64,000 bases of DNA from IMG/VR virus record IMGVR_UViG_3300042466_001016. One strand, written 5' to 3'. This stretch comes from an uncultured virus (IMG/VR IMGVR_UViG_3300042466_001016) (Duplodnaviria > Heunggongvirae > Uroviricota > Caudoviricetes). The notes below the pieces were generated by a model. It did not search any database. It saw only the letters and a program-made list of their open reading frames with translations, and was not told the origin of the DNA. A program made the position numbers and the translations under genes. Positions 9,725-63,363 of the stretch are shown in pieces (position 1 is the first letter of the stretch; each line of letters begins with the position of its first letter).

Positions 9725-9937
9725 TTAAATTTTTATACCCGTAAAGATTACCGATAAAATATATGCTATTGACACACCTAAATAAAATAGAGATGTACTT
9801 GAAAGCCTGTACTTAATCGGTTGTTCTTCGGTTGATGTTAGAAATGCTTGGGCGAAATAGTATGTGTGTCTTACAGTCGTTAAACACGACAAAAAGAACA
9901 CGAGAATAAGTACTTTGTTTACCATTTCAATTAACAT
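9725..9937 (-). CDS. Small two-TM membrane protein
   Basis: Two hydrophobic helices in 70 aa. Confidence 0.65.
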   Translation of the reverse strand: MLIEMVNKVLILVFFLSCLTTVRHTYYFAQAFLTSTEEQPIKYRLSSTSLFYLGVSIAYILSVIFTGIKI

Positions 9938-10402: not shown

Positions 10403-10867
10403 TTATACAATTTTCAATGATTTATCAAAAATCTTATATATTTCAATGAAAGTATCCATATCTGAATTAGTTTTTAATTTATCATAATCAAAAATTTCAC
10501 ACCATAATTTTAGACTAATTTTATCAGTATAATCTATTAGTTTTTTTTCAGATGAATAAAAAACTTCAAGCATATATTCCAAAAAATACATATATAATTT
10601 ATTGCCCTCAAAACAAACCCCCTCTTCAAAAAAATTATCTCTATTTTTATCCCAACACCATTTAAAATGGTTGATTTGTTCTTCAATACTAGTTACTTCA
10701 TCACCCATATACGTATCAAATGCCAATCTTAATAAAGATTGCACAAAATCGCTATAAAGTTCGCATTTTTCGAACTTTATATTATTAGCATCATGGATAA
10801 CCATAATGCTTTCTTTACTCATGGGGTTATTGATGTAGGCCAAAAAATTACGATGTTTGTTGTTCAT
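10403..10867 (-). CDS. Hypothetical protein (start likely MNNKH at 10867)
   Basis: ORF 10403-10903; ATG 10867 lies just downstream of an ATATTTAT motif (10880-10887). Confidence 0.7.
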   Translation of the reverse strand: MNNKHRNFLAYINNPMSKESIMVIHDANNIKFEKCELYSDFVQSLLRLAFDTYMGDEVTSIEEQINHFKWCWDKNRDNFFEEGVCFEGNKLYMYFLEYMLEVFYSSEKKLIDYTDKISLKLWCEIFDYDKLKTNSDMDTFIEIYKIFDKSLKIV

Positions 10868-10913: not shown

Positions 10914-11528
10914 TTAGTGTTTCAACCAGCCGTAATATCTATTTGTTAGTGAAGTTCTTTCTTCTAAACCGTTCTTACCACCATTGATTGCTTTTGTCAT
11001 CGCCAAAATTGTGTCAGCATTAACACCCTTATCAGCGATTTTCCAAAGATTGTTTTTCTCAAAGAAAAACATAGCAGAATCAAATGCGTATTCACCAGAA
11101 ACCAAATCTGGGTTGGTAAGGATTTCTGGTTTTTTAAGATATTCAGAGAAAGCTTTATAGTTATCCTTACCCGTCAATTGCAATGCACCTCTTCCACGAA
11201 ATTTGAACCCTTCTTGTGAAGTTTCATCACCGTTGCCCATTCTGCTTCCGTATACTCTAGATGCAATTTTAACTGGTTGTCTAGCATATGATTCTGATAA
11301 GTTACCAGGAAAATATTTACCAAAGATTGAAACCAAACCACTAGCACTGTAATTAAGGTTTTCGGTAAAGATGGTAAATCCACCTGTTTCATGTGATGTT
11401 TGTCCAAAAAAGTGTGCTGCTCTTTCTGGTGTCATTTTGTAATAAGCAGCAGCTGCTTTTAATGTTGCTGGGCCGAATGCTCCGTCTGGAGTCGCACCAA
11501 TTTTTGCTTGAAGTTCTTTTAAAGCCAT
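10914..11528 (-). CDS. Endolysin, glycoside hydrolase family 19 with short N-terminal peptidoglycan-binding segment
   Basis: LQAKIGATPDGAFGPAT; AHFFGQTSHETGGF..FTENLNYS; FRGRGALQLTGKDNY; TKAINGG.NGLEER. Confidence 0.92.
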   Translation of the reverse strand: MALKELQAKIGATPDGAFGPATLKAAAAYYKMTPERAAHFFGQTSHETGGFTIFTENLNYSASGLVSIFGKYFPGNLSESYARQPVKIASRVYGSRMGNGDETSQEGFKFRGRGALQLTGKDNYKAFSEYLKKPEILTNPDLVSGEYAFDSAMFFFEKNNLWKIADKGVNADTILAMTKAINGGKNGLEERTSLTNRYYGWLKH

Positions 11529-11542
11529 GGTTTTGTTTTTTT

Positions 11543-12226
11543 TTATTTTTGTTCTTTATTTTCGGATGCATATTTAACACCCATTATTGTACCTACTATA
11601 CTAAAAGCGTTGGTTAACAAAATACCAAACATATTGCTCCATGTTGAGCCAATTATTTGTGTTTCTTTTCCACTAAAGATTGCTATTACGTATAAAAAAG
11701 TAGTTGTTATACCGACTCCAATGATAACAAACAAAGCACTTTTAACAATCGTGTTGATGAGTTCATATTGAGTTTTCTTCTGTAAAATATCCAAGTCGTT
11801 TTCAACATTTTTCTTAGCATTTTCAGCATCCAATCTAGCCAACTCGGATTTTTTCATCTCTTCAACAAGTTCTAGACTCATTCTTTGATTATCTTCCTTC
11901 CAAGCTATAAGTTCTCTGTTCTGTAGTTCTATTTGTTCTTTTGAATCTTCAACACTTTTGATAGTGTTTTGTAATTCACCCATCATGCGTTTATTATCAT
12001 CATTCAGTGTCAACAAATCTTTGTTTTGTATTTGAATCTGTTTGGTGATTTCTAAACGTTTTTTTCTCCCTTCTTTGTCTTTACCGATACACTCATCAAC
12101 ATATTTTTTAAATTCTTCATCATTAGAAACATCTAAAAAACGAGTGATGTTACCTTCCAAACCAATGTTTTTTTGTTGGTAAAGGTCTATCAAAAACTTT
12201 TTTGTCTTATCGTCTAAGATAATCAT
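11543..12226 (-). CDS. Coiled-coil protein with two C-terminal TM helices (holin/antiholin or signalling-output candidate)
   Basis: Long heptad region with internal duplication (QIQIQNKDL..DNKRM..EL / QIELQNREL..DNQRM..EL); TMs ALFVIIGVGITTTFLYVIAIF and MFGILLTNAFSIVGTIMGV; lies between RR and endolysin. Confidence 0.6.
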   Translation of the reverse strand: MIILDDKTKKFLIDLYQQKNIGLEGNITRFLDVSNDEEFKKYVDECIGKDKEGRKKRLEITKQIQIQNKDLLTLNDDNKRMMGELQNTIKSVEDSKEQIELQNRELIAWKEDNQRMSLELVEEMKKSELARLDAENAKKNVENDLDILQKKTQYELINTIVKSALFVIIGVGITTTFLYVIAIFSGKETQIIGSTWSNMFGILLTNAFSIVGTIMGVKYASENKEQK

Positions 12227-12660
12227 TACTTATAAATTTTAAACGGTAATGTTCTATTTTTATAACCTTCATAGTCTTTTCTGAATTCTTCTAATCTAGG
12301 TTCAATTTCATCAGATTTGATAATCCAAAATTGTGCACCAGATTGTAAAGCTTTTGTTTGTTCTGTTGGTTCATCAGATGAAGAGATTATACCAACAACA
12401 ACATTGTTTCCGTATTCAAAATTTATTTTACGAATAAGTTCAATACCATCAAAGGAAGAACCTATTATATTTAAGTCCACAAACACACATTCTGGTTTGT
12501 CGGTACTTTTTTCAGTAAACCATTTTTTAAATAGTTTTTCAGCCTCATCAGCACTGTTAAGGGAAGTTAATGAAAGACTTATGTCCAATAATGAACAAGC
12601 GTCTTCAAAAACCAAGTGGAACAAATCTTCATCGTCCACCAATAAAATTGAGTCAATCAT
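12226..12660 (-). CDS. Stand-alone response regulator receiver (CheY-like)
   Basis: ILLVDDE, phosphoacceptor in VFVDLNI, DGIELI, ISSS, conserved Lys in WIIKS; no output domain. Confidence 0.92.
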   Translation of the reverse strand: MIDSILLVDDEDLFHLVFEDACSLLDISLSLTSLNSADEAEKLFKKWFTEKSTDKPECVFVDLNIIGSSFDGIELIRKINFEYGNNVVVGIISSSDEPTEQTKALQSGAQFWIIKSDEIEPRLEEFRKDYEGYKNRTLPFKIYK

Positions 12661-12670
12661 TTTTTAATTT

Positions 12671-14152
12671 TTATTTTATTTTTATTTTCATTTTAGTACC
12701 AATGTCATTTTTTTCACATGATATATTGAACCCATGTTCTTTTAAAATTGCAACGCATATGTTCAACCCTAAACCAGTACCAGATTCTTTTTGACCTTCT
12801 TTTCTAGTATAAGGTTGTGATAAATAATCGAAGTCTTTTTGTGTTATACCTCTACCATTATCTTGTATAATCATATTATCATCTTCAAAATATAATTTAA
12901 CAAATTTGGTATCCGAATCATTATATTTTAAACCATTACGTATTAAATTATCCACCGCTGTGCAGAATAGCGATTCGTTGACTGAAACACTAGGTAATTC
13001 ATCTATTACTACTTGACTTAAGTAAGAAGTTGATTCTAAATAAGATTTTAAAATTTTAGCTAAATCACAATCTGTTTTTGTTAAAATTGCGTTGGGTTTT
13101 ACTAGATTTGTAAATTCATAAACACCCTTGTAAACTTTTTGAGTATGTTTTAAACCCTCTTTAATCATTTTTAAAGGTGCTTCAATTTTAAGTGCTTCAA
13201 TATCTTCTTTTTTAAGTCTTCTTTCCAAAGAACTTACACCTCTTGGCATGTAGGTGTTGATACCAGAATGCATATCGTGACGAAGAATTTTAGCAGCATG
13301 TTCTAGATATGTATTTTTCTTTTCAATTTCTTTTTGCTGGTTGAAACTTTCAGTGATATCAGTGGCAATTTTCATTACCCTATAAGGCTTACCATTAAAA
13401 TCAATAATAGGGTTATAGGTCGCTTGAAGATATATAACAGAACCATCTTTCTTTTTTCTTGTTATTTCCCCACTAAAAAAAACACCATTTATTAAATTTT
13501 TCCAAAAATCTGCATATTCGGTAGATTTGGTGACATCATCTTTCATAAATATACTATGATGTTTACCCACTAATTCATCTTGTGAGTTGTAACCCATAGT
13601 TTTTAAGAATAAATCATTTGCAAAATAAATGTTGCCATCTAAATCAAATTCAATAACCGCATTAGAACGATTAATAGCATTCATTCTATTTGAAATCTCT
13701 ACTTCTTTTCGTTTTAATTCAGTTACATCTTGTCGAATTGACATAAAACCAATAAGTTTACTATTTTCATCAAATTCCCCTTTGATATAAGTGTCTACAT
13801 GATATAATGAACCATCCTTGGCTTTGTTGGTGCAGATAAAATTCCAAATTTTTTTCTCTTTTATGACTGTTTTGTACATTTCATTCCATAGTTCTTTTGG
13901 ATGGATTCCAGAATTAACTATATTGTGGTCTTTACCTAAAACTTCTTTTAAAGTATAACCAGACACTTGTTCAAACTTTTCGTTAACATAAGTGATTTTA
14001 CCATTTTTGTCAGCTTTAGAAACAATTACTGAATTATCAATAAACTTCTCTAAATCTCTTAAGTTTTTTAACTCTATAGAGTTTTTGCTAGAGTCTTTCA
14101 AAAACCCAAATAAAAAAATTATTTTGTTGAAAAATTTTGGTATGACATTCAT
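12671..14152 (-). CDS. Cytoplasmic sensor histidine kinase with two PAS/PAC domains
   Basis: PAS1 (ITYVNEKFEQVSGY..NKAKDGSLY..IRQDVT), PAS2 (ANDLFLKTMGY..GKHHSIF..FWKNL..ATYNPI..ATDIT), H-box LRHDMHS, N-box NLIRNGLKY, G1 DNGRGI, G2 GTGLGL. Confidence 0.95.
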   Translation of the reverse strand: MNVIPKFFNKIIFLFGFLKDSSKNSIELKNLRDLEKFIDNSVIVSKADKNGKITYVNEKFEQVSGYTLKEVLGKDHNIVNSGIHPKELWNEMYKTVIKEKKIWNFICTNKAKDGSLYHVDTYIKGEFDENSKLIGFMSIRQDVTELKRKEVEISNRMNAINRSNAVIEFDLDGNIYFANDLFLKTMGYNSQDELVGKHHSIFMKDDVTKSTEYADFWKNLINGVFFSGEITRKKKDGSVIYLQATYNPIIDFNGKPYRVMKIATDITESFNQQKEIEKKNTYLEHAAKILRHDMHSGINTYMPRGVSSLERRLKKEDIEALKIEAPLKMIKEGLKHTQKVYKGVYEFTNLVKPNAILTKTDCDLAKILKSYLESTSYLSQVVIDELPSVSVNESLFCTAVDNLIRNGLKYNDSDTKFVKLYFEDDNMIIQDNGRGITQKDFDYLSQPYTRKEGQKESGTGLGLNICVAILKEHGFNISCEKNDIGTKMKIKIK

Positions 14153-14189
14153 ATTAACTATTTACTTTTTTGTTTAATAACACTCAAAA

Positions 14190-14199
14190 TATAAATATC
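14190..14199 (-). promoter_or_regulatory. Putative phage (late-type) promoter motif GATATTTATA upstream of kinase-RR-membrane-endolysin unit
   Basis: Same ATATTTAT motif precedes many virion genes; lies between an upstream terminator and the kinase ATG. Confidence 0.55.
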
Positions 14200-14209
14200 A
14201 ACCAAAAAC

Positions 14210-14240
14210 AAAAAAGCCCTCACAAAGTGAAGGCTTTTTA
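14210..14240 (-). terminator. Intrinsic terminator after the 659-aa gene
   Basis: AAAAAGCCCTCAC-AAA-GTGAAGGCTTTT hairpin (one G-U pair on - strand) with A-run on the left. Confidence 0.75.
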
Positions 14241-14260: not shown

Positions 14261-16240
14261 TTATTTTTCCATACTTTGAGTAGTGTGAAGTGTTTCACCT
14301 GTTTTTGGGTCGTAATGTGATTCAGCATATTCATCCAAACCAAAATCAGTTTTTTCAAATGAATCATCTTCATAATCAGCAGCAATATTGGCGGCTTCAA
14401 TTTTTTTAATAATCAACGCAGCTTTTTCAGAACCCTTTCTAGACGAATCAGATGCAATTGATAAGTATTCATCTGGAACTTGAAATTTATCATTTTTAAC
14501 GCTTATCCAATATTGGCCACTAGATGGGCTGAATAATAATTTAGCATCGTTCTTTGATGCTCTCTTTGATGGTTTATTTGGTGGTAATGGGATTTGAATA
14601 TCATCTTCATCATCTTCATCATCAATACCAATTGGAATACCTGTTTTTTTGATGTCAGCAACTGTTGGTTCTTTTTCGTTAGAAGAATCATCATCTTCTG
14701 GTTTATTCCAATTATCTTCTTCTTCTTCTTCTTCTTCTTCTTCACCAGATTCTTCAGAACCTTCTTCGATATCATCATAGGTATCATAATCTTCTCCTTC
14801 CCCATCTTCTTCTTCTTCTTCTTCTTCTTCTTCGTCACTTTGATTCCATGGAGAATTAGGGTCATTTTCAGTTCCTGGAGCATAGTTGCTACCGTCACCA
14901 ATTTCTTTGATAGCCATTTTCTTCATATCTTCTTCAATTTCTTTCATCAATTCTTCGTCAGTCATGTTTTCATTCATTTTAACATGTTTTTTGGCTTCTG
15001 GAGCGTGTGACATTTTGGTATCTTCCCAATGTCCTTGTTTAGGAGCTGAAGTTTCAGTTTCCATCTGTTTTTCACCACCAGATACTTCATCCCAGTTACG
15101 TTGTTTAGCTTTATCAGTTGCTTTGGCAGAACCATTAGCCATGTGTTTTTTAGATTCTGGTGCTTGTGACACAGCTTTATCTAAATCCCCTTCTTTGGCT
15201 TTTGGTGCACTCATACCTTTATCAGTAGATGTTTTACCTTGAACATGTTTGGTTGCTTCTGGAGCTTTTTTAGACGTTTCTTCCCAGTTAGATTCTTTAG
15301 CGTTTGTTGATTCAATATCTTCTTCACTTAAAAGTTCTTTTGATTTATTCCAGATATCACCAAAAACTTTGTTTTCATTGATTCTAGCGTTACCCTTAAC
15401 AAGTCCTAAAGTATCTTGAGATTTATAACCAAATAATTCTTTCATTCTTGTTATGTCTTCATTTACCATCTTCTTGTCAGAAGCAGTAAGTACAACAGCT
15501 TTGCCCTCAGAAAGATTACCTTCCCAACGGATTCTATAAGTTTCGTTACCATCAGTCATTTCAAATGTTTTATTATCTACTCTGTAGCCTTCTGGTATTA
15601 ATTTCAAAGCGTTACCTACGCCTTTGAATTCATTTTTAAATTTTAATCTTTTCATAGATTCTTTTATTTGTGGGTTGTTATTATTTGTTTTGTTATTTTC
15701 TTCGATAGCATACGGTCTATGACCAGTATCTTTTAAATCAGCTTGAATGTCACGACCTCTTAAATTAAGTGTAGGTGTTTCTTCACTTCTCTTATTAGTT
15801 GATGCTTTGATTCTTTTAACCAAGTTTTTACCGAAATCATCTGAAGATGCGCCCCAAGTTGCTTGAGCGTTTCCAATACCACCTTGATTACCCATTTTTG
15901 CACTACCTTCAATAGCTTCAAAGGCTCTTTCTACATAACGAGAATCTGGTTTGCTATCATATTGAAGCATTTCTTGACCATTCATGATTTCCATTTCATC
16001 ATGATAAGTTTTTTCAAATTTATCATCGTAGCTATATTTGTTAGGGGCCATTTTAGACGTATCTTTGTCTTGTTTAAGACTCTTATTATAAGCAATAGAA
16101 TCTTTTTCAACAGCCTTGACACCATCTTTATTAACCTTTGCATTGTCTTTTTTTACTTTGTTGGTTACACTGATTCCAGGTGTAACTTCTTCAGATAAAA
16201 ATCGTTTGCTTAAGTGGTCTTTTATTATTTTCTTGTCCAT
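14261..16240 (-). CDS. Large acidic, repeat-rich protein, probable head-associated/internal protein
   Basis: Many [IL]xE motifs, W[ED]..APE.KKH repeats, poly-Glu tracts, ATATTTAT motif upstream. Confidence 0.7.
   Translation of the reverse strand: MDKKIIKDHLSKRFLSEEVTPGISVTNKVKKDNAKVNKDGVKAVEKDSIAYNKSLKQDKDTSKMAPNKYSYDDKFEKTYHDEMEIMNGQEMLQYDSKPDSRYVERAFEAIEGSAKMGNQGGIGNAQATWGASSDDFGKNLVKRIKASTNKRSEETPTLNLRGRDIQADLKDTGHRPYAIEENNKTNNNNPQIKESMKRLKFKNEFKGVGNALKLIPEGYRVDNKTFEMTDGNETYRIRWEGNLSEGKAVVLTASDKKMVNEDITRMKELFGYKSQDTLGLVKGNARINENKVFGDIWNKSKELLSEEDIESTNAKESNWEETSKKAPEATKHVQGKTSTDKGMSAPKAKEGDLDKAVSQAPESKKHMANGSAKATDKAKQRNWDEVSGGEKQMETETSAPKQGHWEDTKMSHAPEAKKHVKMNENMTDEELMKEIEEDMKKMAIKEIGDGSNYAPGTENDPNSPWNQSDEEEEEEEEEDGEGEDYDTYDDIEEGSEESGEEEEEEEEEDNWNKPEDDDSSNEKEPTVADIKKTGIPIGIDDEDDEDDIQIPLPPNKPSKRASKNDAKLLFSPSSGQYWISVKNDKFQVPDEYLSIASDSSRKGSEKAALIIKKIEAANIAADYEDDSFEKTDFGLDEYAESHYDPKTGETLHTTQSMEK
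14840..14872. repeat. 33-bp exact repeat, copy 1 (copy 2 at 18499-18531)
   Basis: TTGATTCCATGGAGAATTAGGGTCATTTTCAGT, encoding TENDPNSPWNQ in both genes. Confidence 0.9.
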
Positions 16241-16281
16241 TTTTATTTATTTATTTATAAATATCTTAGTTTTGGATAAAG

Positions 16282-19257
16282 TTAAGCTTTCTGACTTTGA
16301 ACCACATCTTTATTTTTGGTATTTCTAGCCGCTTCTTCATCAATTTTACTAATTATGAATTGTGCTACTTTAGATATTACTTCTAAATTACTTTGTATTT
16401 TTTCCTTGTTAGCCTTCCATAAAGCCAAATATGTTGTATGATGCGATACTGGAAGTCCGTAGTGTTTTAATACCACATAAGATACGCTTTCAGCTTGAAG
16501 TTCTTTCAAAGCACTACTACCTCTAACTTCGTCATCTTGATAGAAGATAGATTTGGCTTTAAAGTGCATCAATTCATGAGCAATTTCATGTATCATAGTT
16601 GATAACCTACCAGCACCAGATACGTCCGATGATATGTTGATATGGTCGCCAGCAGCAAAACCTTTCTCACCACCCTTGGCATCTGATTGAGTAACTTTGA
16701 TACCCAAATCTGAAGCAACTTCAGAAGCATACATGAATAATTCATCAGCTGTTTCTGATGGTGTGTTGTCACCCCACCATTGTGGTTCATCTGGTATATC
16801 ACCTCTTTCATCCATTGGTTCGGTATCTGAAATGTCAAAAACGTTAACTGCTCTAAACCCTCTCACATCTTTATCACGATTAAATTCACCCATACCCAAT
16901 GAAGGTTCATCATCTGGAACTGATTTGTCTTTGTTTATAATAGGGGCCAAAATAGTAATAGCTTTAGCACCTTTCTTAACTTGTCTGAATTTTTCTTGCC
17001 ATTTTTTATATGAACCAACTCGTTTCGCATCTGGTCTTTGAATGAAAATAAGTATTCTATTAAAGAAACTGTAATCGTGGAATTTAGAGAAGAAAGTTAA
17101 ATATCTTCTGATTTCAGCTGATAGAGCTGCTTCATCAGTAGCATTGGCCAAATCAGATATATATTGGTCCAATTTAGCTTTCAACAAACTTTTATTATCA
17201 GCTTCTGAACTGTCAATAGCTTCTTCTACGTCTTCCAGTGTGCTAATAAGGTATTCAGCTTTATTGATTAATGAAAGTGTTTGTTTAGCCACTTCTAGTT
17301 TATCTGTAGGGATGGCCCAATTGGTGCCTGTCCAGATGAAACCGTTTTGTTTTAGTACGTTTTTATTTGAAAAGGTTTCTTGACTAGCAGCTTTGCCTTC
17401 CAAGTCTGAAATAACATTAAGCTTGTTATTTTTTTTATCGTGTTGAAGCTTTAGGGCTTCTTTAATAAAAGATTCTGATAAAGATGGAGCATTGATGTTG
17501 CCTTGGGTTTTCTTTAATTTAACCACATTATCTACGGCACCTTGACTACAACCAACACCAGCTGGTTTGTTGTTTAATTTTGTACAATCATTAAATTCAA
17601 CAAAAGCACCGTTAGCATACTGAGTTTTTTTTTCTGCGTTGGTTTTCTTTGAATTCTTAAAACTACCATTACGATTTATTCCTGGTAAAGCATTTGCATC
17701 ATAAGCACCAACACTACCACTACCAGCTGTTGTTTCAGTCAAAGATTCTTTATACCAATTACCAATTAATAATGGGTCTATACCTCTTTTTTGAAGATTA
17801 TTTTTAGATGTGATTAAAAAATCAGATAATTTATTTTCTGGGTATTGGTCTTTTAAATCCAATGATGTATAATGTTTAATTTCATCATTTTCAACACCAG
17901 TATAATCCCAACCATTGGCTATTTTATTAGAATCCTTAAAAAGTGCAAAATGTGTATAGCCGTCACCCAAACCTTCACCAACAACTGGTACATTCAATTT
18001 ATTGGTATCTACTGGCATTTCTTTTTTTATCATTGGCATACTCAAGGCACCAGTGAATGAACCAGACGATGCCGCACCAGTCATCTCTTCAAGACCATTA
18101 GGTGATAAAACCTTAACAATTGATTTGCTTTTATCGTATAATGATATAAGTTCATTTTTTAAAGGTTCGTCAATTTTAACCAACTCATCACCAGATTCAA
18201 AAGAATCAACTCCATTTCCTTTAGATAAACTATTCAAATTAGCATTTATATATCTTTCAAGCACATCCCTATCAATTTCAAAATCACCATATTCGTATTC
18301 TGGATAACCATCTTCATCTTTACCAACATATTTTTTTTCAACTTCAGCATAATCAAAGAATTTATCTTTATCGATAAAGTCATAATTAAACACATATAAC
18401 ACCCCATTTTTACTTTTTAAAATAGCTATTTCACTATTATAAGCTATTGCTATTAATTGAATATTTTTAGGTGTAATTGGTTCTTTATATTCAACATCTT
18501 GATTCCATGGAGAATTAGGGTCATTTTCAGTACCAGCTGGATAATTGCTAGCTTCTGTTTCCATTTGAGGTTCAGAACCCATTAGATTGTGTAATTCGTT
18601 TTCAACAGCTTGGATGGCTTTTTCTGGGCTTCCAGATGTTTTAGAAAGTTCGTATTTACCGTTGTCACCAACAATCAAACCTTTGTTTAATAATGCATCG
18701 CAAATATCGTCAAATGTCAAATCATGTTCAACCCAAAATGGTGAGAAAATTTCTGATTTACGGTATAAATATTTTATTAATTCTATGGTTTCTTTTTTGA
18801 TAGAGTCATCAACTCTAGTTAAACCATCACTCATATCAGTATTTTCCTTGATGAGCCCAGAAGCAAACAATCTATTATATTGCTCTTTGGTAATTTTAAC
18901 TATATTTTTTTTTGATTCTTTAAGTGCTTTGGTTAACGATTTCTTTTCAAACACTATTGTAGGGTCAATAGATGCAATTGCATTTTTGATATGTGGGAAT
19001 TTGTATTCACTAACAGTACCAACTATTTTTCCTGATGTTTCGTAAAAACTAAGATTTGAGTCTGGGTCTTTTTTTTTGATACTACTAATAACAAAATCAT
19101 GTTTTTTTTCAACGATACCATTATAAATAACAACACGGATTGGATTTGCTCCTAATGAACTACCAACTGATTTTAAACCAGACTCATCATCATTTTCGTT
19201 TATCTTTTTAATATTCAATAATTTAGATTGTCTTTCTGTAATCTTAAGTTTTTTCAT
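16282..19257 (-). CDS. Polyvalent-type protein with C-terminal ArdC-like ssDNA-binding domain and zincin metallopeptidase (MPTase/ImmA-like)
   Basis: FHDYSFFNRILI..Q.PDA..V.SYKKW...RQVKKGAKAI.ILAP..F..VNVFDISDT (ArdC-N); TMIHEIAHELMH..ELQAESVSYVV...G...YL..W (peptidase). Confidence 0.85.
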   Translation of the reverse strand: MKKLKITERQSKLLNIKKINENDDESGLKSVGSSLGANPIRVVIYNGIVEKKHDFVISSIKKKDPDSNLSFYETSGKIVGTVSEYKFPHIKNAIASIDPTIVFEKKSLTKALKESKKNIVKITKEQYNRLFASGLIKENTDMSDGLTRVDDSIKKETIELIKYLYRKSEIFSPFWVEHDLTFDDICDALLNKGLIVGDNGKYELSKTSGSPEKAIQAVENELHNLMGSEPQMETEASNYPAGTENDPNSPWNQDVEYKEPITPKNIQLIAIAYNSEIAILKSKNGVLYVFNYDFIDKDKFFDYAEVEKKYVGKDEDGYPEYEYGDFEIDRDVLERYINANLNSLSKGNGVDSFESGDELVKIDEPLKNELISLYDKSKSIVKVLSPNGLEEMTGAASSGSFTGALSMPMIKKEMPVDTNKLNVPVVGEGLGDGYTHFALFKDSNKIANGWDYTGVENDEIKHYTSLDLKDQYPENKLSDFLITSKNNLQKRGIDPLLIGNWYKESLTETTAGSGSVGAYDANALPGINRNGSFKNSKKTNAEKKTQYANGAFVEFNDCTKLNNKPAGVGCSQGAVDNVVKLKKTQGNINAPSLSESFIKEALKLQHDKKNNKLNVISDLEGKAASQETFSNKNVLKQNGFIWTGTNWAIPTDKLEVAKQTLSLINKAEYLISTLEDVEEAIDSSEADNKSLLKAKLDQYISDLANATDEAALSAEIRRYLTFFSKFHDYSFFNRILIFIQRPDAKRVGSYKKWQEKFRQVKKGAKAITILAPIINKDKSVPDDEPSLGMGEFNRDKDVRGFRAVNVFDISDTEPMDERGDIPDEPQWWGDNTPSETADELFMYASEVASDLGIKVTQSDAKGGEKGFAAGDHINISSDVSGAGRLSTMIHEIAHELMHFKAKSIFYQDDEVRGSSALKELQAESVSYVVLKHYGLPVSHHTTYLALWKANKEKIQSNLEVISKVAQFIISKIDEEAARNTKNKDVVQSQKA
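18499..18531. repeat. 33-bp exact repeat, copy 2
   Basis: Identical to 14840-14872. Confidence 0.9.
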
Positions 19258-19593: not shown

Positions 19594-20064
19594 TTATTTT
19601 ATTGAAATGCCGACCAAAAGTGTAGCTACTGGAAGTGCTACGTCACCTATAAGTGCTATCATTTTGATAATCTTTTGTTTTCTAAGTTCTTTTTTTTGTT
19701 TTTTTATCACATCACTCAAAATCTCATTCTCACTTTTTAAATTATCTATGATACTGTTTAGGTTATTTACAATTTCTGTTAAATTATTTTTCTCATTTTG
19801 AAGAATTTCAATTTTATCAACAAGTAATGTGATTTTGTTTTTATTAAGGCTATCAACAACCGTATAAACATCAAGTAAACTATCGTTGATTTCTTTTTCT
19901 AATAATGATTTAAGTATTGTTTTAGCATCAGATAAACTCATCTGAATTACGGTATCACCGTATTCATTAATGACTGATTGTACTCTTTGTTCTTTCGATA
20001 TATTTTGTGAGCGAGCTGGCAACGCCATTAGCAGACAAAACATTAACATGATTAGGTATCTCAT
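19594..20064 (-). CDS. Secreted coiled-coil protein with C-terminal hydrophobic anchor (spanin-like candidate)
   Basis: Signal-peptide-like MRYLIMLMFCLLMALPARS, coiled coil, C-terminal hydrophobic tail; overlaps upstream gene by 98 nt. Confidence 0.5.
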   Translation of the reverse strand: MRYLIMLMFCLLMALPARSQNISKEQRVQSVINEYGDTVIQMSLSDAKTILKSLLEKEINDSLLDVYTVVDSLNKNKITLLVDKIEILQNEKNNLTEIVNNLNSIIDNLKSENEILSDVIKKQKKELRKQKIIKMIALIGDVALPVATLLVGISIK

Positions 20065-20826: not shown

Positions 20827-21433
20827 GGTTTTCTATTTTGTTTTTAAATAATTCACAATTCCAACTTGGGTTTATATCAGTGTAATATTTTTCTATGTTA
20901 CTTTTATACATAACTCCCTTATAATCACTTAAATTATCAACCTTGGTGTTATGGTTGATTGCGAATAAGGGTATTTTGAACTCATTACATAATGATTTTA
21001 CCAACTTTGTTGTCGATTCAAATTGTTTTTTAGTGTATGGGGCCCAAAAATTATAACCCCTCCATCTTTTTTCAACAACCTTGCTCGGTTCTTTATAAAT
21101 ATCACCAATCCACGTAATAAATTCGTTATTTTCAGAATTTTTAATTAACCAACCATCATTTTCCAATAAAATAACGATACTTTTTGAGTTTGATTGGTAA
21201 TCTTTAAAATAATTAGAATAGAATTTAGGGTCAAAGTGTTTATAAATTAAACCAACAGAACTTATTGTAAACGCTGCTGTTTTTTTATAGTGTCCATTAT
21301 ACCTTTTTAACCAACCATTATAGTGACGCATGTCATGATTAAACGTATGACCAATAATTATCTGTTCTTTTTTTGATTCTATTGGTATATAGTTTTGAAT
21401 AGGTAACACATGTGTTTTATCATCTATTAACAT
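20816..21433 (-). CDS. N-acetylmuramoyl-L-alanine amidase (Amidase_2)-like protein, possibly inactive
   Basis: QIIIGHT, AFTI...G.IYKHF, SIVILLEN, YTKKQFEST..LV..LC..F.IP, TDINP. Confidence 0.7.
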   Translation of the reverse strand: MLIDDKTHVLPIQNYIPIESKKEQIIIGHTFNHDMRHYNGWLKRYNGHYKKTAAFTISSVGLIYKHFDPKFYSNYFKDYQSNSKSIVILLENDGWLIKNSENNEFITWIGDIYKEPSKVVEKRWRGYNFWAPYTKKQFESTTKLVKSLCNEFKIPLFAINHNTKVDNLSDYKGVMYKSNIEKYYTDINPSWNCELFKNKIENHEG

Positions 21434-22680: not shown

Positions 22681-22712
22681 ATCAAAAGTTTTTTCTTATA
22701 AATATCTTAAAT

Positions 22713-24219: not shown

Positions 24220-26580
24220 CTATTTAAAAGATATACTCGAAATATTTTTTTCTTTTATAACCGTAACCATATTATCAGCAAAATCTTTAACAAGGTCATT
24301 ATGTGTAATTAAAAATACTATATCATACATATCCTTTATCTTATCAAACAACGTTTTCAATTTTTCAATATTTTCTACCGCCACTTTACCCAAAACTTCA
24401 TCAAAAGTAATGAAATTAGGCATTGGTAAGGTTGACATTTTACCTAAAATAGCTCTTAAAGCTAGACTAGAGGCTGTTTTTTCAAAACCACTAGCCGATT
24501 TAAGCAATTTGGTGGTATCATCCTTATTTATCAAAAATTGAACATCGTTCTTATCATCTATAAATATCTCGACTTCAAAATCACAAACATCTTCTAGTAA
24601 CCTTTGCACTTCAGAATTTATAATCGGCAGAACAGAACGTAGTACCAATTTGCTAACCCCCTTCTTACCTACTAGGTCTATATATATCTTAAAAATACGG
24701 TCTATATCTTCTTCTTTTTTAATGGTTTCAATAAGCTTGGTCTTGGTAGCTATATTAGTAATATGGTTTTGCATATCAGAAGATACCCTTTCTATCTTGG
24801 TGATAGTATCAACCTTGGTGTGTTCACACACCGCTATATCAGTTTTTACCTTAGATACAACTATATCAACTCTTTTATTGTGTTCTATAGCCTCTAAATT
24901 AAGATTATACTTCTTTAAATCATTCATTTTAGATGAAACTTGATTTCTAAGAGCACCAATTTCAACTTCTAACCTATCCTTATCCAACTCCAAACGATTT
25001 TTTATATCAATTTTACTCTTCATTGAATTCAAACCCAATAATTCGTCATTGATTGTAACCAAATCTTCAGTCAAAGTTAATATTTCACCTTGAACCCTTT
25101 TGATTTCATGGTTATGTTTGTTGATATGTTCAGAATTATCAACGTTATCCAGTTTTCTATTACATGATTGACATATACCACCAGCTATAAGGTCAATCAC
25201 TACTTTATTTAAACGATTGACTTCAGCTTCCTTGACGGCTTTTTCAGACGTTTTGACCGATAATTCCTTGGTAAGTTGATGGTGTAGGTCTTCATCAAAC
25301 TCAATACCCCACATTTCACTTATTTTGATAGCCATTTCACCCATCTTGGTCTTCAACGCCACACCTTTTATACTCAAAGTATCAATTTCTTCTTGTAATT
25401 TAGATGGGTTTAATGCAGATATGGTAACATCTATCTTCTCTTTGCTGTTCAATAACCTATCATTCTCATCATTAAGTTCAGCTATACTAGTTTTTGCACC
25501 CTCAAACTTTATTTTTAATAACTTTTTAAGTTCTTCATTCTCAGTAACTTTTATTTCATGTTCAGCTATATCACTAGTTAGGGTAATTACATCATAGTCA
25601 TTGGATTTTTTCTTCCTTGCAAAGTCATTATACATGACCCTGGCAGCCGCTTCTTTAAGTTCTAGTATTTCTAACCCTATAAGACGGGTCAATATCTTAC
25701 CAGATTCACTAGTGGTTAACCCAATTAGGTCGTCAAGATTATTTTCGGTGGCCAACACCAACATCTCAAAGTCTTTTTCACTACCTATAGTTTCTTTTAG
25801 CTTTGACGTGGTTCTTTTGGCATCTTCCTCGTTTAATTCTTCTTCATCACCATCTGGTAATAACTTGTAGTAGTTGACTTTATTGGTTACATTCCAACCT
25901 TCACCTTTTTTGACGGTACGTTTCATCTTGCGCTCAATAATCAATTCTTCACCTTCAATCTCAATCATACCACGAACAACCAATTCGTTCTTACCACTAA
26001 ACGAATTAAATATTTGTTCGTTCTTATCTGTCTTGGTTGTAGTACCATGTAATAAGAACTTTAATGAATCTATACACAATGACGTTTTACCACCAGTATT
26101 GCTTGGGATTGAGTTTACCACCGTTAAACCTTTAAGTTTGCTAAACGGAACATAATTGTTCTCACCAAATGATAAGAAATTATCAATCATTATCCATTTA
26201 ACAGACCAACTTTTATGTTGTGATTGAGTGAGGTCGATGTTTAATTCACCGTTGACTTTATCATCCAAGGCAACGATTCTATTAAAATCAACAACCTTGT
26301 TATCTCTAGCTATCACTTCCTTCATCAAAGCACGTTGATGATTAACATCCATGATGTTTTCTATGTTTGCACCAGATACCTCAACAGCATCTCCTTTATC
26401 ATTATATTTGATTGGACGATAAACAACTATAACGTTATTTTTGTTTACACCATACTTATTCGCAAAGTGGTTACGAACTTTGTTTTTGGCTTCTTTGGAA
26501 TAATTTTCTGGTCGGTCTGACCACTCCACCTTAATTTTTGAATAAGATGATATTTGTATTTTTGTTAGTGTGTCTTGCAT
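24220..26580 (-). CDS. sbcC: SbcC/Rad50 (T4 gp46-like) ATPase with ~120-aa N-terminal extension
   Basis: IDNFLSFG, atypical Walker A SNTGGKTS, zinc hook CQSC, signature ASGFEK, Walker B FITFDE, H-loop ITH. Confidence 0.9.
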   Translation of the reverse strand: MQDTLTKIQISSYSKIKVEWSDRPENYSKEAKNKVRNHFANKYGVNKNNVIVVYRPIKYNDKGDAVEVSGANIENIMDVNHQRALMKEVIARDNKVVDFNRIVALDDKVNGELNIDLTQSQHKSWSVKWIMIDNFLSFGENNYVPFSKLKGLTVVNSIPSNTGGKTSLCIDSLKFLLHGTTTKTDKNEQIFNSFSGKNELVVRGMIEIEGEELIIERKMKRTVKKGEGWNVTNKVNYYKLLPDGDEEELNEEDAKRTTSKLKETIGSEKDFEMLVLATENNLDDLIGLTTSESGKILTRLIGLEILELKEAAARVMYNDFARKKKSNDYDVITLTSDIAEHEIKVTENEELKKLLKIKFEGAKTSIAELNDENDRLLNSKEKIDVTISALNPSKLQEEIDTLSIKGVALKTKMGEMAIKISEMWGIEFDEDLHHQLTKELSVKTSEKAVKEAEVNRLNKVVIDLIAGGICQSCNRKLDNVDNSEHINKHNHEIKRVQGEILTLTEDLVTINDELLGLNSMKSKIDIKNRLELDKDRLEVEIGALRNQVSSKMNDLKKYNLNLEAIEHNKRVDIVVSKVKTDIAVCEHTKVDTITKIERVSSDMQNHITNIATKTKLIETIKKEEDIDRIFKIYIDLVGKKGVSKLVLRSVLPIINSEVQRLLEDVCDFEVEIFIDDKNDVQFLINKDDTTKLLKSASGFEKTASSLALRAILGKMSTLPMPNFITFDEVLGKVAVENIEKLKTLFDKIKDMYDIVFLITHNDLVKDFADNMVTVIKEKNISSISFK

Positions 26581-34430: not shown

Positions 34431-34491
34431 ATGTTATAAATATATTGTTTTTACCTTTATTTTAGTTATAAATATCCAATTGTCAATAATT

Positions 34492-36943: not shown

Positions 36944-37010
36944 GTTTTTTGTTTATTTATAAATATCTATTATGGCGTTAAATTATCCATTTATTATAGT
37001 ATTGTTTTTA

Positions 37011-63314: not shown

Positions 63315-63363
63315 AACTTATAATTTTATTGTCGTTATTTTTACTATAAATATCACGAATCTA

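Follow-up and report, generated by a model that had tools for sequence, protein, structure and literature searches.

A phage-encoded kinase, lone receiver and membrane-hairpin protein beside an endolysin gene, and their possible part in lysis control in lake phages

Results

The four-gene locus

We analysed a 64,000-nucleotide (nt) stretch of DNA, hereafter the window, from the uncultured Caudoviricetes virus record IMGVR_UViG_3300042466_001016 of IMG/VR. Four co-oriented genes on its minus strand encode, in the direction of reading, a soluble PAS-PAS histidine kinase of 493 amino acids (aa) (12671..14152), a single-domain response regulator of 144 aa (12226..12660), a 227-aa protein that we term MEM, comprising an N-terminal domain, a coiled coil and a two-helix membrane hairpin (11543..12226), and a 204-aa GH19 endolysin (10914..11528). 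The kinase was delineated by Pfam matches, alignments to PDB entries and hydropathy, the receiver by Pfam and alignment, MEM by alignment, an AlphaFold2 (AF2) model and hydropathy, and the endolysin by matches to Glyco_hydro_19 of Pfam (5.6e-09) and the endolysin family phrog_181 of PHROGs (2.5e-56). An earlier sequence-only reading had proposed that these genes form a two-component system wired into a lysis cassette; its account of the gene layout and of the endolysin stands, with a 10-nt gap between the kinase and receiver genes, a 1-nt stop/start overlap (TAATG) between those of the receiver and MEM, and a 14-nt gap between those of MEM and the endolysin.

The terminator and the repeated motif placed by that reading ahead of the cassette were likewise recovered. 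The former is an intrinsic-terminator-like hairpin (14211..14239, minus strand), which ends an upstream gene for a 659-aa protein and has a 13-pair stem with 5 GC pairs, a loop of 3 nt and a T-rich tail. The latter, GATATTTATA (14190..14199, minus strand), lies 38 nt ahead of the kinase start and by motif count occurs eight times in the window, always on the minus strand, against 0.56 copies expected (14190-14199, 16256-16265, 21094-21103, 22697-22706, 24559-24568, 34467-34476, 36958-36967 and 63345-63354). Six of the eight copies are intergenic and stand 13-40 nt ahead of an ATG, and two come after a terminator-like hairpin; by its placement the motif is probably a phage promoter element. A PHROG scan of the other genes headed by it, which the sequence-only reading took for virion genes, returned no matches.

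The kinase and the receiver

The kinase matches the Pfam models PAS_3 (2.9e-22), PAS_9 (5.4e-20) and HATPase_c (1.6e-13); the HisKA model does not score on it, and its dimerization and histidine-phosphotransfer region is covered by alignments to CpxA and HK853. Across 61 distinct relatives it retains the H-box region LEHAAKILRHDMHSGINTYMPRG (RHDMHSG), the N box NLIRNGLKYN and the G1 (DNGRG) and G2 (GTGLGL) boxes, and it lacks any hydrophobic segment even under a lax hydropathy threshold, just as the sequence-only reading had described. In searches against the PDB its first PAS domain recovers MmoS (3ewk, 1.8e-22), Aer (8dik, 5.8e-15) and NifL (2gj3, 2.6e-11) through alignments that include a GxDHxIVNSG stretch, and the NifL model of NCBIfam matches the kinase at 2e-33, under its equivalog cut-off. 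By sequence this domain is hence a member of the MmoS/Aer/NifL subfamily, in agreement with its earlier assignment to the Aer/NifL type, and is predicted to be of the flavin type; the output here is a kinase acting on a lone receiver, whereas in the known members it is chemotaxis or the control of NifA. The second PAS domain is of the type that other phages fuse to the membrane hairpin, as described below. Among the relatives the kinase cores are kept and the PAS parts vary.

The only domain detected in the receiver is Response_reg (1.4e-08; 35.3 bits against a cut-off of 30.2), which is followed by about 30 conserved C-terminal residues; its best solved relative is 3ilh (1.7e-06). In 50 sequences D9, D10, D62, S93-95, W112 and K115 are invariant and the mean column identity is 89%, such that the claim of a receiver with its acidic pair, phosphorylatable Asp and Lys and without a DNA-binding domain is borne out. 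Between them, the two proteins carry the residues of a classical two-component pair, namely the H, N, G1 and G2 boxes of the kinase and the acidic pair, Asp, Ser and Lys of the receiver; the former would phosphorylate the latter.

Anatomy of MEM

Hydropathy places two hydrophobic helices in MEM at residues ~153-187 and 196-220. The AF2 model (pLDDT 85) likewise shows a small N-terminal helical part, a single long helix spanning residues 37-185 and a second helix spanning 190-226, consistent with the earlier description of a coiled-coil protein with two C-terminal transmembrane helices directly ahead of the endolysin. Relatives are 50-77% identical to the window copy, and an alignment of 56 sequences concentrates their conservation in three parts: the N-terminal domain (N-domain; LEGNI, D36, F39, Y42 and RxxRL), the juxtamembrane helix and the hairpin. 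The loop and the second membrane helix (IIGSTWSNMFGILLTNAFSIVGTIMGVKY) are almost invariant, and the intervening coiled coil is variable, with indels of heptad length (7 residues). Small or polar residues recur at about every fourth position of the second helix (G201, T205, S209, G212/T213, G216) and suggest a helix-packing face.

MEM has no family in Pfam, PHROGs or NCBIfam, and a fold search of its model against the PDB returned nothing at E <=0.001; its profile finds coiled-coil noise only among PDB sequences (best 0.012). In the Atlas the whole protein falls into unnamed viral clusters, residues 135-227 have no usable named match, and the clusters holding the hairpin are 96-100% viral.

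A conserved kinase-receiver-MEM unit

Relatives of MEM were recovered at 260 places in viral contigs, from which 80 loci were kept, including the window's own record. The receiver gene directly precedes that of MEM in 76 of the 80, the exceptions being two truncated loci and the loci L071 and L077, where other genes take this place. In all 76 the receiver stop and MEM start overlap or lie at most 5 nt apart (a 4-nt overlap in 37 loci, a 1-nt overlap in 33 and a spacing of 3-5 nt in the other 6), which extends the stop/start coupling first noted in the window to the family at large; to judge from these junctions, the receiver and MEM form a fixed, translationally coupled pair. The kinase gene is found directly upstream of the receiver gene in 61 of the 66 loci with both genes, and a 240-aa homing endonuclease of the GIY-YIG/NUMOD3 type (phrog_314, 7.5e-21) lies between them in five loci (L016, L032, L035, L059 and L069). 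Two kinase paralogues occur in 22 loci (e.g. L026 and L040), the second, of ~440 aa, adjoining the receiver; in 19 of the two-kinase loci the kinases are separated by a ~205-aa signal-peptide protein (cluster c6). At such loci two inputs may converge on one receiver.

Two complete relatives of 322 kb have exactly one receiver gene and one HATPase_c gene each, both at this locus, and the complete relatives yielded no further receiver and no DNA-binding regulator. Taken together, the comparisons identify the kinase, receiver and MEM as the conserved unit, and we posit that their genes in the window (14152..11543) constitute a self-contained phage signalling path. The synteny predicted by the sequence-only reading thus survives for these three genes and not for the fourth, as direct adjacency of MEM and GH19 is confined to three of the 80 loci (L003-L005), which form a single clade (support 100/97 in a MEM tree of 79 rows).

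Sensor-fused hairpins and the N-domain

A profile of 56 MEM sequences, run against 1.84 billion representative proteins (E <=0.001), recovered 261 relatives. Among them are proteins in which MEM's juxtamembrane helix and hairpin are attached to sensor domains in place of the rest of the protein, in the forms PAS-PAS+hairpin (371 aa), PAS+hairpin (251 aa) and GAF+hairpin (360 aa). Five further clusters, of 318-349 aa, join the N-terminal ~110 residues of MEM to HisKA and HATPase_c domains. The clusters of such swapped forms hold 1-8 members, on contigs of up to 100 kb. Two other hits, P0075 (the N-terminal part with FecCD) and P0009 (MEM with a piece of RNA polymerase), appear to be chimeric calls and were excluded.

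The PAS domains of the fusion share 51% identity with the second PAS domain of the kinase, through to the same ATD(I/V)TES linker, and its hairpin part shares 48% identity with MEM, the second helix being nearly identical. In an AF2 model of the fusion (pLDDT 81.7) the last PAS strand leads into a single helix (residues 246-326), of which the first membrane helix is a part. Searching viral contigs with the PAS-PAS fusion gave 253 relatives, of which 80 loci were kept, on contigs of up to 272 kb; in the five fusion-type phage records searched, three of them at least 90% complete, neither a receiver nor a HATPase_c domain was present. In these phages the PAS domains and hairpin would by themselves be a one-protein path. 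Because the same hairpin is fused to PAS or GAF domains in phages without the kinase and receiver, we propose that it is the output of the signal path.

The opposite end of MEM is illuminated by a contig of a Bacteroidetes metagenome-assembled genome (MAG) with a GC content of 0.40 and chromosomal-looking neighbours. At L329:3669-7050 it encodes a PAS kinase, a receiver and a protein with the MEM N-domain joined to HisKA and HATPase_c; its receiver and kinase core are respectively 69% and 63% identical to those of the window, the receiver and third gene share the same 1-nt overlap, and the arrangement looks like a kinase-receiver-kinase cascade. Since the receiver-coupled gene begins with the N-domain both where a hairpin follows and where a kinase core does, this domain is best viewed as a receiver-facing input and is the likely docking site. 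The sequence-only reading had placed receiver docking on the coiled coil, a proposal that we consider less likely given the variability of that segment and the conservation of the N-domain. A complex prediction for MEM 1-165 with the receiver, made without folded controls, yielded 0.00, 0.46 and 0.00 in its runs and bears on binding in neither direction. No full-length fusion of the N-domain to a kinase was found in viral contigs; a metagenome scan gave N-domain matches only, and genome contigs gave one locus.

Lysin neighbourhoods

The surroundings of the hairpin were compared in three sets. The split type comprises 86 loci (64 distinct proteins), namely the 80 MEM loci and six further triplets (L086-L091); a lysin is adjacent in 4 and within three genes in 43, is the sole lysin and more than three genes off in two, and is lacking in 17 loci with full flanks (none within ~6 kb) and 24 with short flanks. 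In the PAS-fusion set (80 loci, 59 distinct proteins), 32 loci have an adjacent lysin and 66 have one no more than three genes away; it is lacking in 5 loci with full and 9 with short flanks. The three GAF-fusion loci have no adjacent lysin, a lysin within three genes in 2, none lacking it with full flanks and one lacking it with short flanks. In 25 of the 80 PAS-fusion loci the lysin gene follows immediately on the same strand, the gap being 7-29 nt in most.

The nearest lysin in the PAS-fusion set is GH19 in 42 loci, Phage_lysozyme/GH24 in 11, Peptidase_M15_3 in 8 and a protein of the PG_binding_1+phrog_3000 type in 5. The recurrent neighbours include GH19 with PG_binding_1, Phage_lysozyme (3.2e-43), Peptidase_M15_3 (7e-21), the PG_binding_1+phrog_3000 protein, which also matches the endolysin family phrog_33083, a four-helix Phage_holin_4_1-like protein (27.4 bits against a cut-off of 22.2) and several small two-helix proteins, along with proteins that begin with a signal or lipobox and carry a membrane helix at the C terminus, a layout that we read as unimolecular-spanin-like.

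These comparisons lend strong support to the view that the hairpin family belongs to phage lysis cassettes, chiefly because its place by the lysin holds while the lysin family changes; such constancy is hard to explain by inherited order alone. As a rough estimate, made without a formal null, we would expect a random gene in such genomes to lie near a lysin in fewer than 10% of cases. Taken alone, the split-type loci had led us to regard the endolysin as an accidental neighbour, a view dropped given the fused forms and their neighbourhoods. In the split form the link to the endolysin is loose.

Discussion

A proposed signal path to the membrane hairpin

On the strength of the above, we favour, with slightly better than even confidence, a phage-encoded signal path that has the hairpin as its output and modulates lysis. 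The soluble kinase would read a cytoplasmic signal via its two PAS domains, the first being of the flavin-type MmoS/Aer/NifL family, and phosphorylate the lone receiver; this in turn would act on the N-terminal domain of the translationally coupled MEM, from where the signal would run along one long helix to the near-invariant two-helix hairpin. Most likely, lysis would thereby be advanced or delayed by the redox or energy state of the host. We infer both the nature of the sensed signal and the docking of the receiver on the N-domain. Single-domain receivers of the CheY type act through protein contact. The lone receiver resembles them in its intact acidic pocket, phosphorylatable Asp, Ser/Thr, aromatic switch (W112) and Lys, and differs in that it is proposed to act on a new N-terminal domain borne by a membrane protein, with no motor or chemotaxis genes present.

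Several observations pull against this proposal. The related loci share phylogeny, and hence the lysin counts are not independent events; moreover, their genes were called by our own longest-open-reading-frame script, rather than a gene finder, before being clustered. Beyond the one clade with direct MEM-GH19 adjacency, GH19 is one to four genes off, in at least eight arrangements, or absent from the flanks, and to this are added the 17 fully flanked split loci without a lysin. The GH19 orthologue of two large relatives is ~55 and 75 kb removed from MEM, and in two complete genomes the triplet persists with no lysin close by; in a complete 321-kb genome the search for GH19 found none, the PG_binding_1 protein closest to the receiver lying ~35 kb away. 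The loci L071 and L077 (record G006, 177 kb, 74% complete) have MEM preceded by two unrelated genes, for proteins of 297 and 427 aa, and the kinase and receiver are nowhere in the record. The N-domain+kinase locus is a single MAG contig, and the N-domain is rare in bacteria, being seen in only one of 401 sampled genomes of the phylum, and in one, plus one marginal case (7.3e-4), of 201 in the family. Finally, 61 of 66 fusion and 31 of 43 split cassettes encode a further small membrane protein at most two genes from the pair, 15 of those fusion and 8 of those split cassettes having a Phage_holin_4_1-like gene within four genes, and MEM itself belongs to no described holin family in Pfam, PHROGs, NCBIfam, the Atlas (residues 135-227) or the fold search.

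The split loci without a lysin, the two complete genomes that keep the triplet away from one and the other holin-like genes in most cassettes are in keeping with a hairpin that does something in the membrane other than time lysis. It might exclude superinfecting phages, regulate membrane potential or ion flux during takeover, or touch a host membrane complex, and its proximity to lysins would then be an inherited order within a variable region of membrane and envelope genes. Fast-evolving holins are known, and the near-invariance of the hairpin, in which it departs from them, would fit a conserved host target. We nonetheless regard this explanation as unlikely, if the strongest of those competing: the adjacency outlasts replacement of the lysin among GH19, GH24, M15 and a fourth type, is seen in phages of 120-320 kb whose neighbouring genes differ, and in nearly a third of the PAS-fusion loci takes the form of closely spaced consecutive genes.

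Membrane accessories encoded by a third gene are common among two-component systems. MEM could likewise be an accessory or scaffold, serving as a membrane anchor or upstream sensor for the kinase, with the phosphorylated receiver acting on some other phage or host target, and the fusion of its N-domain to a kinase core would fit a kinase input or docking domain. This we hold to be quite improbable: the PAS+hairpin and GAF+hairpin proteins include those of fusion-type phages without kinase or receiver, where the hairpin is no kinase accessory; 29 nearly invariant residues would be more than a mere anchor needs; and the receiver has no output domain, while the complete relatives show no further receiver or DNA-binding regulator through which it might work. 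That the module is a recently captured bacterial signalling operon, carried as a passenger without a phage-specific role, is hardly credible despite the homologous kinase-receiver pair on the Bacteroidetes contig, given the hundreds of MEM and fusion relatives in viral contigs, a receiver far better conserved across phages than the MEM it is coupled to, the almost wholly viral hairpin clusters and the near absence of the N-domain from the sampled genomes of the phylum.

Holin, co-holin or regulator as possible roles

If the path from kinase to hairpin does modulate lysis, the hairpin itself could be a holin or co-holin, which we consider a real but less than even prospect, or a regulator such as an antiholin, which appears the more probable role. 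No membrane protein other than MEM is encoded beside the endolysin in the window; MEM stands in the classical holin position and has two transmembrane helices, and homologues of the small membrane and spanin-like proteins of the related cassettes were not found in the window. Given the other small membrane proteins in most cassettes, however, the hairpin need not be the holin. The earlier label of a holin-like membrane protein is apt for its helices and position, and finds no counterpart in family membership. Elsewhere in the window, a 70-aa open reading frame (ORF) with two hydrophobic helices by hydropathy lies four genes past the endolysin (9725..9937, minus strand), is conserved in L004 and L005, matches no family and is a candidate alternative holin. 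A 156-aa ORF (19594..20064, minus strand) begins, by hydropathy only, with a signal-like segment and has a membrane helix at its C terminus, a layout that can be read as unimolecular-spanin-like; it has no homology to the spanin-like clusters of the related loci.

More tentatively, and with greater doubt than we attach to the signal path as such, we suggest that these phages may carry a previously undescribed class of signal-gated lysis proteins, in which a phage-only hairpin forms or blocks the lethal hole, the PAS, GAF or relay inputs are interchangeable, the relay docking on its dedicated N-domain, and the virus computes its burst time from the redox or energy state of the host.

Relation to known systems

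The timing of lysis sets phage fitness, and to our knowledge lysis inhibition of the T4 type is the only well-understood case of lysis that responds to a signal. In that system, the antiholin RI binds the periplasmic domain of the holin T upon superinfection (PMC11413866); as in our proposal, the phage delays lysis on a signal via a dedicated protein acting post-translationally on the hole-forming protein, but T4 senses in the periplasm, whereas the sensors described here are cytoplasmic (PAS, GAF or relay) and joined to the hairpin by a helix. MEM has no sequence or fold similarity to T or RI, and no homology to T4 RI or RIII was detected in PHROGs or the PDB.

LytS is a multi-pass membrane kinase and LytR a DNA-binding transcription regulator. 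The staphylococcal LytSR two-component system is reported to be linked to membrane state and to the holin/antiholin-like LrgAB and CidAB (PMC4830213), and to this extent parallels a two-component system tied to a holin-like protein. It is bacterial and transcriptional, whereas the present system is phage-encoded and its proposed control is at the protein level; the kinase lacks a membrane segment and the receiver consists of Response_reg alone, unlike the LytSR-LrgAB type. A further parallel is the CckA-ChpT-CtrA phosphorelay, which controls release of RcGTA, a phage-derived element with the endolysin/holin pair rcc00555/rcc00556 (PMC5721377); there too a phosphorelay influences lysis, but it is host-encoded and acts on gene expression, whereas here it is encoded by the virus next to a lysis gene. 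The Flavobacterium phage vB_FspM_immuto has a membrane protein gene directly ahead of a homologous GH19 endolysin gene on the same strand (gp190/gp191); its product is an annotated 138-aa holin without a sensor or coiled coil, in contrast to the 227 aa of MEM with their ~150-residue cytoplasmic part and receiver coupling.

The available text of a jumbo-phage survey mentions only a divergent receiver, never linked to kinases (PMC7824862). Our literature search, which left subscription journals largely outside its scope, uncovered no paper linking lysis to a kinase or receiver that a phage encodes, and none on a holin with a PAS domain. Sensor domains, or a whole phosphorelay, hard-wired to a membrane protein of the lysis cassette would point to the control of lysis by intracellular cues in abundant lake phages, and offer a modular, testable system with a swappable input (PAS, GAF or relay) and an output (the hairpin). 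Because the relay and MEM precede the lysin, and related phages fuse the hairpin to sensors within lysis clusters, we propose that these phages probably tune the bursting of the host to the state of the cell.

Source phage and neighbouring genes

The window covers only part of the genome of an uncultured giant phage from lake water, of the ~320-kb class, since its relatives reach 321-322 kb, one of them with terminal repeats, and a 38-kb virus record that is 100% identical across the region is rated 11% complete. The region is AT-rich (GC 0.29-0.37), and 68 of the 71 window genes, called as longest ORFs, lie on the minus strand. PHROG matches in the window include ribonucleotide reductase, a DnaB-like helicase, SbcC, a baseplate wedge protein, a UvsX-like recombinase and an exonuclease. 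The stretch is present in lake-water metagenome runs from 19 studies, and the lake metatranscriptome contigs of one run contain 66% of its sampled words. None of 50,697 deposited phage records was matched by MEM or the receiver in tblastn searches, and the kinase matched deposited phage records at the level of its PAS domains only. The host is likely to belong to the Bacteroidota, because the GH19 gene resembles that of a Flavobacterium phage endolysin (66% nucleotide identity) and the closest cellular receiver to that of the window is the one on the Bacteroidetes MAG contig.

Directly upstream of the kinase, the 659-aa protein (14261-16240, minus strand) has long Glu/Asp runs, no Pfam or PHROG match, and is kept only in the closest relatives (46% identity in L004). 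Beyond it is a 991-aa protein (16282-19257, minus strand) with a long N-terminal extension of no assigned kind, the C-terminal third of which matches anti-restriction proteins of the ArdC type (ArdcN, 2e-08; phrog_7245, 1.1e-19). In 22 related loci a ~620-aa protein, DnaK/Hsp70-like by eye (cluster c5, e.g. L050:4159-6024), is encoded near the triplet. On the far side of the cassette, a terminator-like hairpin (10753-10781, minus strand) falls inside the region annotated as the start of the next ORF after the endolysin (166 aa), the TTG start of which may be wrong.

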